From NCBI RefSeq assembly GCF_024502345.1, contig NZ_JALDNN010000001.1: 64,000 nt of DNA; one strand, written 5' to 3'. The notes beneath the pieces are model-generated. The model was given only the letters and a program-made list of their open reading frames with translations, was not told the DNA's origin and searched no databases. This DNA comes from Escherichia coli (lineage in GTDB: Bacteria > Pseudomonadota > Gammaproteobacteria > Enterobacterales > Enterobacteriaceae). Positions within the stretch are counted from its first letter, which is position 1, and each line of letters opens with the position of its first letter. The position numbers and the translations under genes are program-made. Below are positions 9,676 through 38,291 of the stretch, piece after piece.

Positions 9676-10455
9676 TTAGTAGCTGCTGGCGCTCTTACCG
9701 TCGCCGTGGCCCAGCGCTTTCAGCAGGCTTGCCAGCAGGCTGGAAGCGCCAAAGCGGTAGTGACGCGCATCTGCCCAGTCAGCACCGAACAGTTCATCTG
9801 CGATGGCGAGATATTTCTGCGCATCTTCCGCAGTACGCACGCCGCCCGCCGGTTTGAAACCAACGTTTTTTTCTACGCCCATATCACGGATCACTTCCAT
9901 CATGATCCGCGCGCTTTCCGGCGTCGCGTTCACTGCCACTTTACCGGTAGAGGTTTTGATGAAGTCAGCACCCGCTTTGATGGAGATTTCAGACGCTTTG
10001 CGGATCAGCGCTTCGTCTTTCAGTTCGCCGGTTTCGATGATCACTTTCAGCAGTACATTCGCTGCCGCGCAAGCCTCTTTACAGGCTTTCACCAGGTCAA
10101 AACCAACCTGCTCGTTACCCGCCATCAGCGCGCGGTACGGGAACACAACGTCAACTTCATCAGCACCGTAGGCGATTGCCGCACGGGTTTCTGCCAGCGC
10201 GATTTCGATGTCGTCGTTACCGTGTGGGAAGTTGGTTACCGTAGCAATACGGATTTCCGGGGTGCCCTGCTCTTTCAGTGTCTTGCGAGCAATCGGGATA
10301 AAGCGAGGATAGATACAGATAGCGGCGGTATTGCCGACCGGCGTTTTGGCCTGATGACACAGGGCGATCACTTTCTCGTCGGTGTCGTCGTCATTCAGGG
10401 TGGTCAGGTCCATCAATTTCAGTGCACGCAGGCTGCTTGCTTTCAGATCAGTCAT
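9676..10455 (-). CDS. deoC: Deoxyribose-phosphate aldolase
   Basis: 259 aa from [19 protein letters not shown] with AGGAGA RBS; ORF 9676..10479 is an upstream extension. Confidence 0.95.
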
Positions 10456-10499: not shown

Positions 10500-10515
10500 T
10501 GTTAGTATTCTAACA
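10500..10515. promoter_or_regulatory. DeoR operator-like palindrome TGTTAGTATTCTAACA (deoP2-proximal)
   Basis: 16-bp palindrome ~45 bp upstream of the deoC ATG; matches remembered DeoR operator TGTTAGAA-TTCTAACA. Confidence 0.7.
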
Positions 10516-10519
10516 TCTA

Positions 10520-10620
10520 CTCCGCAACACACTTCGATACACATCACAATTAAGGAAATCTACTTACAAGTTTGCATCACTGTAATGCGATCTGGTTCAA
10601 ATAATTCACTTTCAAATGAA
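10520..10620 (-). promoter_or_regulatory. deoP2 region with CRP/CytR sites
   Basis: Reverse complement contains TTATTTGAACCAGATCGCATTACAGTGATGCAAACTTGTAAG, which matches the deoP2 tandem CRP region as I recall it. Confidence 0.55.
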
Positions 10621-10712
10621 TGCGTCAGTGGTGGCAAACGCATCAGGATCAAAGTGAACATCACGAAACTTCTTACAATGGCGCATCACCTTCGGCATAA
10701 AAGGAAAAGAAG

Positions 10713-12263
10713 ATGCCCACTTCTCATGAAAATGCACTGCAACAACGTTGCCAGCAAATTGTCACCAGCCCAGTGCTTAGCCCGGAGCAGAAGCGCCATT
10801 TTCTGGCACTGGAAGCAGAAAACAATCTGCCTTACCCACAGCTTCCTGCCGAAGCCCGCCGCGCGCTGGATGAAGGTGTAATCTGCGATATGTTTGAAGG
10901 TCATGCGCCGTACAAACCGCGCTATGTCTTACCCGATTACGCCCGTTTTCTGGCGAACGGTTCCGAATGGCTGGAGCTGGAAGGCGCGAAAGATCTTGAT
11001 GACGCACTCTCTCTGCTGACCATTCTTTACCACCACGTACCGTCGGTCACATCGATGCCGGTCTACCTGGGGCAACTGGATGCGTTGTTGCAACCGTATG
11101 TTAGAATTCTAACACAAGACGAGATCGATCTTCGAATAAAACGTTTCTGGCGTTACCTCGACAGAACCCTGCCAGACGCCTTTATGCACGCCAATATCGG
11201 CCCGTCTGATTCGCCTATTACCCGCGCGATCTTACGTGCAGACGCAGAGTTGAAGCAGGTTTCACCGAACCTGACCTTTATCTACGATCCTGAAATCACC
11301 CCTGATGACCTGCTGCTGGAAGTGGCGAAGAACATCTGTGAATGTAGCAAACCGCACATCGCCAACGGTCCGGTGCATGATAAAATTTTCACAAAAGGGG
11401 GCTACGGGATTGTGAGCTGTTACAACTCACTGCCGCTGGCTGGTGGTGGCAGCACGCTGGTACGCCTTAACCTGAAAGCCATTGCCGAGCGCAGCGAATC
11501 GCTGGATGACTTCTTTACGCGCACTCTACCGCACTACTGCCAGCAGCAGATCGCCATCATCGATGCGCGGTGTGAATTCCTCTATCAACAATCACACTTC
11601 TTTGAGAATAGCTTCCTGGTGAAAGAAGGGCTGATTAACCCTGAACGTTTTGTGCCAATGTTTGGCATGTATGGGCTGGCGGAAGCGGTTAACTTGCTGT
11701 GTGAGAAAGAAGGGATTGCCGCGCGCTACGGTAAAGAAGCCGCCGCAAATGAAGTGGGTTATCGCATCAGCGCGCAACTGGCGGAGTTTGTCGCCAATAC
11801 CCCCGTGAAATATGGCTGGCAAAAACGCGCCATGTTACACGCACAGTCGGGGATCAGTTCCGATATCGGCACCACGCCGGGCGCGCGTTTGCCGTATGGC
11901 GATGAGCCAGATCCGATCACCCATCTGCAAACTGTCGCCCCGCATCATGCTTATTATTATTCCGGCATCAGCGACATTCTGACGCTCGACGAAACCATCA
12001 AACGTAACCCGCAGGCACTGGTACAGCTTTGCCTCGGTGCCTTTAAAGCCGGAATGCGTGAATTTACTGCCAATGTCAGCGGTAACGATCTGGTTCGCGT
12101 TACCGGTTATATGGTGCGTTTGTCGGATTTAGAAAAATATCGCGCCGAAGGTTCACGCACCAACACCACCTGGCTGGGCGAAGAAGCCGCACGCAACACT
12201 CGTATTCTGGAACGCCAGCCGCGCGTGATAAGCCATGAACAGCAGATGCGCTTTAGTCAGTAA
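10713..12263 (+). CDS. yjjI: YjjI, putative glycyl-radical enzyme (C-terminal RVTGY motif), substrate unknown
   Basis: 516-aa ORF; glycine-radical-like motif RVTGYMV near the C-terminus; followed by an activase-like gene. Confidence 0.85.
11099..11114. promoter_or_regulatory. Second DeoR operator-like palindrome TGTTAGAATTCTAACA (deoP1 candidate)
   Basis: Perfect 16-bp palindrome exactly 599 bp from the proximal site, the operator spacing I recall for the deo operon; lies inside the yjjI coding sequence. Confidence 0.6.
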
Positions 12264-37968: not shown

Positions 37969-38055
37969 GCGAAGGTGGCGGAATTGGTAGACGCGCTAGC
38001 TTCAGGTGTTAGTGTCCTTACGGACGTGGGGGTTCAAGTCCCCCCCCTCGCACCA
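37969..38055 (+). tRNA. leuQ: tRNA-Leu (anticodon CAG), copy 1
   Basis: GCGAAGGTGGCGGAATTGGTAGACGCGCTAGCTTCAGGTG...CTCGCACCA with long variable arm and CCA end; paralog name by position. Confidence 0.9.
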
Positions 38056-38083
38056 AAAACCACGTTGATATTGCTCGCACTGG

Positions 38084-38170
38084 GCGAAGGTGGCGGAATT
38101 GGTAGACGCGCTAGCTTCAGGTGTTAGTGTTCTTACGGACGTGGGGGTTCAAGTCCCCCCCCTCGCACCA
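38084..38170 (+). tRNA. leuP: tRNA-Leu (CAG), copy 2, with one variant base in the variable arm
   Basis: Same as copy 1 except GTGTTCTTACGG instead of GTGTCCTTACGG. Confidence 0.85.
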
Positions 38171-38204
38171 AACGAGGCGATATCAAAAAAAGTAAGATGA
38201 CTGT

Positions 38205-38291
38205 GCGAAGGTGGCGGAATTGGTAGACGCGCTAGCTTCAGGTGTTAGTGTCCTTACGGACGTGGGGGTTCAAGTCCCCCCCCTCGCACCA
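38205..38291 (+). tRNA. leuV: tRNA-Leu (CAG), copy 3
   Basis: Identical to copy 1. Confidence 0.9.

Follow-up and report, generated by a model that had tools for sequence, protein, structure and literature searches.

DeoR operators of the Escherichia coli deo operon and the embedding of two of them in the divergent gene yjjI

Since the 1980s, the DNA loops formed at the deo operators O1, O2 and O_E have served as a standard illustration of action at a distance, and the operators and tandem promoters of this operon, as well as the 16-bp palindrome and the figure of 279 bp for O_E, reportedly go back to the work of Dandanell and Hammer in 1985 and of Valentin-Hansen and colleagues in 1986. The window analysed here, a 64-kb stretch of an E. 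coli genome (64,000 nucleotides of contig NZ_JALDNN010000001.1), contains two such palindromes, one next to deoC and the other within the coding sequence of the neighboring gene. The question raised by this locus is whether these palindromes are indeed the operators of the deo operon, and what it may entail for the neighboring gene to harbor regulatory DNA of an operon to which it does not belong.

The region corresponds to the yjjI/deoC divergent pair of E. coli. The first gene of deoCABD, deoC, encodes deoxyribose-phosphate aldolase and occupies positions 9676-10455 on the minus strand (PF01791, E = 5e-49; RefSeq annotation), while yjjI, at 10713-12263 on the plus strand, encodes a YjjI-family glycyl radical enzyme of 516 codons (PF11230, E = 4e-220; RefSeq annotation) and is followed by yjjW, which encodes a radical-SAM activase. 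The two genes are separated by 257 bp, and the arrangement agrees with the order annotated in K-12, yjjI, deoC and deoA. No promoter or operator features are annotated in the yjjI-deoC region of the K-12 RefSeq record. When 5,426 complete genomes of E. coli were compared, 5,423 matched the 1.3-kb segment that surrounds the sites, with 95-99.8% identity and with yjjI and deoC as the annotated genes; the three remaining genomes lack the yjjI-deoC region, and three of 5,426 matching places were on plasmid records. This strain and K-12 MG1655 differ at 5 of 1,301 positions, and the operators are identical in both.

Direct reading of the window places the two 16-mers exactly where the preliminary description had put them, with a start-to-start distance of 599 bp. 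The first one, at 10500-10515 (minus strand), reads TGTTAGTATTCTAACA as written in the window and TGTTAGAATACTAACA on the deo strand, and is located 45 bp upstream of deoC (4617263-4617278 in K-12). The second one, at 11099-11114 (minus strand; K-12 4616664-4616679), is the perfect palindrome TGTTAGAATTCTAACA, which we take to be the published deo operator sequence, and it coincides with codons 129-134 of yjjI (TAT GTT AGA ATT CTA ACA, YVRILT), an internal location that follows from the intergenic region being just 257 bp long. A literature search with the 16-bp operator sequence returned unrelated primer matches only. With deoC transcribed leftward (ATG at 10455) and yjjI rightward (start at 10713), the palindrome nearer to deoC is O2 and the farther one O1. 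This orientation and the published spacing of the two operators (given as about 600 or as 599 bp) bear out the names used in the preliminary description.

We considered whether the palindromes might be chance occurrences or a generic repeat with no regulatory role. When up to one mismatch was allowed, O1 and O2 were the sole matches in the 64-kb window, against an analytic expectation of about 0.0007 such sites per window and a mean of 0.01 matches in dinucleotide-preserving shuffles, none of which (0/100) contained two. Two matches did turn up in 3 of 100 shuffles when three mismatches were tolerated, which is what can be said for chance; the positions of the sites are, however, conserved in the 74 loci described below, and the remaining weak matches in the window have other explanations, so that we give this reading a negligible probability and regard it as effectively refuted. 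Among those weak operator-like matches are three, at 38007, 38122 and 38243, that fall in three tandem tRNA-Leu(CAG) genes (37969-38291) and derive from the sequence TGTTAGTG(T/C)CCTTACG common to these tRNA genes.

A search of the window for sequences related to the palindrome revealed a third site that had been overlooked in the preliminary description. This element, TGATAAAATTTTCACA, lies at 11378-11393 (minus strand; K-12 4616385-4616400) within yjjI codons 222-227, shares 12 of 16 positions with O1, and is separated by exactly 279 bp from O1, on the side away from deoC, and by 878 bp from O2. These distances fit the position of O_E, reported about 300 bp further upstream (PMC8053113), and the range of looping in this system, which is said to act "up to 900 bp naturally" (PMC4217526). 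Taken together, we consider it very probable that the palindrome next to deoC is the DeoR operator O2 of E. coli deoCABD and the one within yjjI is O1, O_E being a weaker third operator.

The properties of DeoR binding, looping and the tandem promoters are taken here from previous reports. DeoR is described as binding the single operators O1 and O2, which are about 600 bp apart and associated with one tandem promoter each; loops between all three deo sites have been seen by electron microscopy, and in vivo measurements of looping have been made with cloned deoO1 and deoO2, with about 72% looping predicted at the natural spacing and tolerance up to about 5 kb (PMC8053113, where the work on the deo operator system of Dandanell et al., 1987 and Amouyal et al., 1989 is cited). 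Promoters deoP1 and deoP2 have been described as lying 599 bp apart and being locked by one DeoR loop (PMC3334521), and DeoR binding, looping and their relief by deoxyribose-5-phosphate are covered in several reports (PMC8053113, PMC3258297, PMC4217526). The locus differs in no respect of kind from the regulatory region of deoCABD so described: the place and the neighboring genes are the same, O1 and O2 are separated by 599 bp and O_E follows after another 279 bp, and upstream of deoC both palindromes coincide in part with hexamers that resemble a -10 element. The earlier interpretation is thus supported, in the sense that this is the classical DeoR operator set of the deo operon; the finding is correct, and already known.

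What the sequence adds is the imprint that these elements have left on their host gene. Relatives of YjjI were collected with one genome per species and irrespective of the presence of operators; 80 loci were taken in among the matches listed, with 215 further yjjI loci left out, and they cover Escherichia, Citrobacter, Salmonella, Enterobacter, Lelliottia, Kosakonia, Kluyvera and others, out to Hafnia, Edwardsiella and Proteus. The gene deoC is divergent and adjacent in all of the 80 except four Proteus loci and two with incomplete upstream flanks, and conservation was evaluated in the 74 ungapped deoC-adjacent loci, ranging from Escherichia to Hafnia and Edwardsiella. All 74 have O1 at position +386 of the coding sequence and O_E at +665, with nearly invariant sequences, and an O2-like site in the intergenic region. 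Mean pairwise identity at third codon positions was 0.987 for O1 and 0.956 for O_E, while the value for the whole gene was 0.532; among 495 six-codon windows ranked by silent-site conservation, O1 came first and O_E third, the second-ranking window overlapping O1. The columns of the predicted deoP1 -10 hexamer showed pairwise identities of 0.95-1.00. Such purifying selection on silent positions constitutes strong evolutionary evidence that the in-gene sites are functional as DNA elements. Within E. coli, the three cores were intact in the most divergent genome to emerge from the comparison with the O1 30-mer, which has 29 differences in 1,428 bp, and exact counts of 30-mers were non-discriminating, being dominated by the flanks and by a private SNP in the control.

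Conservation extends to a block upstream of O1 (11129-11152, minus strand; yjjI codons 139-147), where the window of codons 141-146 reaches a third-position identity of 0.905 against the gene mean of 0.532. This block contains the rare codons CGA141 and ATA142, which belong to a wider cluster: five of the eight rare Arg, Leu and Ile codons of yjjI (AGA131, CTA133, CGA141, ATA142 and AGA151) are found in the 21 codons from 131 to 151 (11103-11165). The block probably represents the -35 region of deoP1 together with its A/T-rich upstream part, and the rare-codon cluster appears to have been imposed by O1 and this upstream region of the promoter.

The conservation of silent sites in codons 129-147 and 222-227 might instead stem from a constraint intrinsic to yjjI, such as a rare-codon pause or mRNA structure. 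The clustering of rare codons at codons 131-151 could be read in that way, and the residues KRFW of the upstream block are conserved in the Proteus protein too. In Proteus, however, the protein is kept but the rare codons are absent and the nucleotide sequence is different. Besides, the extent of the conserved blocks is, to the base, that of a palindrome that matches O2 and of its 12/16 relative at the distance known from the literature, and in vivo work with cloned deoO1 and deoO2 has demonstrated DeoR looping between them (PMC8053113). For these reasons we regard an intrinsic constraint as highly improbable, and favor selection on the deo regulatory elements.

The Proteus loci provide the corresponding contrast. 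In the four of them, with no deoC within 3 kb, the codons at the position of O1 encode YVG(E/N/S)LT and those at the position of O_E encode QDAVFG; no operator is present at either of the two positions and the silent positions vary. The contrast between deoC-adjacent and non-adjacent loci amounts in effect to a single phylogenetic comparison, Proteus being the one clade involved. A further silent-site island was observed in the deoC-adjacent genera at 11595-11612 (yjjI codons 295-300, TTCTTTGAGAATAGCTTC), with a third-position identity of 0.857. It is located about 210 bp beyond O_E and bears no likeness to the DeoR palindrome, and Proteus differs there in both protein (FFKQSF instead of FFENSF) and nucleotides.

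The distance between O1 and O2 is less strictly maintained than the sites themselves. It ranges from 567 to 675 bp across genera, with a mode of 601: Trabulsiella and Pluralibacter have 567-568 bp, most genera 589-604, one Citrobacter 612, Hafnia 626 and Edwardsiella 675, exactly 599 bp being a property of Escherichia and Salmonella. Conservation of an exact spacing or of helical phasing was therefore rejected, the fractional turns being spread between 0 and 0.95. This variability agrees with the tolerance of DeoR looping up to about 5 kb (PMC8053113). The distance from O1 to O_E, on the other hand, is constant at 279 bp for the sole reason that this span consists of 93 codons without insertions or deletions. 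In Hafnia and Edwardsiella, the intergenic region between yjjI and deoC is much longer (457-473 bp) and the O2-like sites are weaker (11-12 of 16 positions).

With respect to the promoters, O1 and O2 present on the deo strand the same extended -10 element, TGT-TAGAAT, in identical register. The hexamer TAGAAT preceded by TGT, at 10507-10512 (minus strand), is the predicted -10 of deoP2, and the one at 11106-11111 (minus strand), also preceded by TGT, that of deoP1, so that the two promoters would be 599 bp apart as well, whatever start is chosen. Placing the exact starts, which we infer by a rule of about 7 nt downstream of the -10 hexamer, deoP2 would start around 10500, with a leader of 45 nt to the deoC ATG, and deoP1 around 11099, with a leader of approximately 644 nt to deoC. 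The assignment of both -10 elements is based on the extended -10 as read by eye; a strict sigma-70 scan for -35 and -10 consensus called neither P1 nor P2 on the deo strand, and for deoP1 no hexamer qualified convincingly as a -35 element. If transcription from deoP2 starts at 10500, its promoter-proximal CRP site, TGTGATGTGTATCGAA (10533-10548, minus strand), would be centred at -40.5, in agreement with what we take to be the published architecture of this promoter. That site is one base away from TGTGATGTATATCGAA, the motif assigned to the yjjI/deoC CRP ChIP-seq peak in enterotoxigenic E. coli (PMC4287617).

Given that the intergenic region comprises only 257 bp, anything located 599 bp upstream of O2 must fall within yjjI. 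The proposal that deoP1 lies inside the divergent gene gains support from this fact and from the published spacing of the promoters. The further suggestion that transcription from P1 runs antisense to the first 400 nt or so of yjjI is supported likewise, in that the predicted start at about 11099 would make the transcript complementary to nucleotides 1 to about 387 of the gene.

The combined information is consistent with a mechanism in which O2 would overlap the -10 element of the CRP/CytR-controlled promoter deoP2, directly upstream of deoC, and O1 that of the upstream promoter deoP1. Multimeric DeoR would bridge the operators pairwise, looping out 599, 279 and 878 bp, and these loops would occlude both -10 elements at once until the inducer deoxyribose-5-phosphate frees DeoR. 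Active P1 would then give rise to a transcript of about 644 nt up to deoC, antisense to the promoter region of yjjI and to the beginning of the gene as indicated above.

One could also imagine that a small protein is encoded in the P1 leader, on the strand opposite to yjjI, and that P1 is so distant for that reason. An open reading frame of 76 aa (11007-10777) is indeed present on the deo strand in the window. It is, nevertheless, open in just 12 of the 74 loci, the identity across genera is 48% for its translation but 88% for YjjI in this segment, and yjjI codons 22-98 show no excess of silent-site conservation in the 74 loci. A conserved antisense small ORF was thus rejected as a candidate element, and there is next to no likelihood that it accounts for the position of P1.

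Binding of CRP within yjjI has also been reported. In ETEC strain H10407, CRP ChIP-seq yielded a peak inside the gene, at a distance of 544 bp from the one in the yjjI/deoC intergenic region. To this in-gene peak the authors assigned the motif CGTACCGTCGGTCACA, at 11036-11051 (PMC4287617). In our window it falls about 30 bp or less from O1. The motif was rejected as a conserved element, being a poor CRP site with a silent-site rank of 473 of 495, and the peak could reflect an indirect crosslink through the DeoR loop between O1 and O2.

Sequences with promoter features are present in the sense orientation of yjjI as well. Because O1 is a perfect palindrome, its yjjI-sense strand also presents an extended -10, TGTTAGAAT, at 11099-11107. 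The consensus scan called a promoter-like TCGCCA-16-TAAAAT with an upstream TG on the plus strand at 11359-11386, overlapping O_E. These plus-strand sites may be internal sense promoters of yjjI that DeoR could occlude, or a coincidence.

Embedded operators are not exclusive of this system, as the auxiliary operator O2 of lac is located inside lacZ and the gal operator O_I inside galE. In lac and gal, as in deo, an auxiliary operator within a coding sequence loops with a promoter-proximal one; the embedded operator of the former two, however, belongs to a gene that is itself part of the regulated operon, whereas in deo two operators and a promoter lie in an unrelated divergent gene. It is this location of the promoter, inside a divergently transcribed gene, that makes the deoP1 transcript antisense to yjjI, unlike what happens in lac or gal. 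To our knowledge, the three-operator, double-loop arrangement has been described for deo alone. Other genes named as DeoR targets, nupG and tsx, share with deo the repressor and the inducer (PMC3258297).

This peculiarity leads to the possibility that the distal elements O1, O_E and deoP1 serve yjjI, mainly or in addition to deo, and take part in the control of the FNR-activated pair yjjI-yjjW, be it through DeoR bound inside yjjI, through an O1-O2 loop enclosing the yjjI promoter, or through head-on transcription from P1. The O1-O2 loop encloses the promoter region of yjjI and an FNR ChIP peak, which presumably maps near position 10620 of the window if the offset between U00096.2 and U00096.3 is, as we assume, 1,977 bp. 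The coordinate of the peak in U00096.2 is 4,615,181, and yjjI has been shown to be directly activated by FNR (PMC3688515). In addition, deoP1 is oriented head-on to yjjI, and the adjacency of yjjI and deoC is co-conserved with the embedded operators over many genera. Nonetheless, the documented role in deo repression fully accounts for conservation of the operators, adjacency could have been frozen simply by the overlap of regulatory elements with the gene, and the open-access papers found to mention yjjI discuss no link between this gene and DeoR or P1. We therefore consider a function of the distal sites in yjjI control unlikely. It is equally doubtful, on the basis of geometry and conservation, that the embedding is more than a historical accident and that DeoR looping or P1 antisense transcription may render yjjI-yjjW responsive to deoxyribose-5-phosphate. 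If that were the case, YjjI, an orphan glycyl radical enzyme, would be coupled to the availability of deoxynucleosides, which would hint at a role in the anaerobic catabolism of (deoxy)nucleosides or pentoses, and the retention of the yjjI-deoC pair and its in-gene operators from Escherichia to Edwardsiella would be explained.

Considered as regulatory elements of deo, O1, O_E and deoP1 represent a natural example of dual coding, with two operators and a promoter maintained inside a host gene in about 20 genera. Their imprint on that gene comprises near-complete silent-site conservation, the clustering of rare codons and also the identity of certain amino acids. The locus could consequently be used as a positive control for methods that seek regulatory elements within coding sequences, and its geometry predicts a testable interaction between deo induction and the uncharacterised YjjI that is not discussed in the open literature searched.

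With regard to variation between strains, position 11130 is C in this strain and G in K-12, which changes yjjI codon 140 from Val in K-12 to Leu, while in most other genera this codon is Ile (ATT). This position belongs to the spacer or -35 region of deoP1, so that the variant might alter the strength of P1 between strains.
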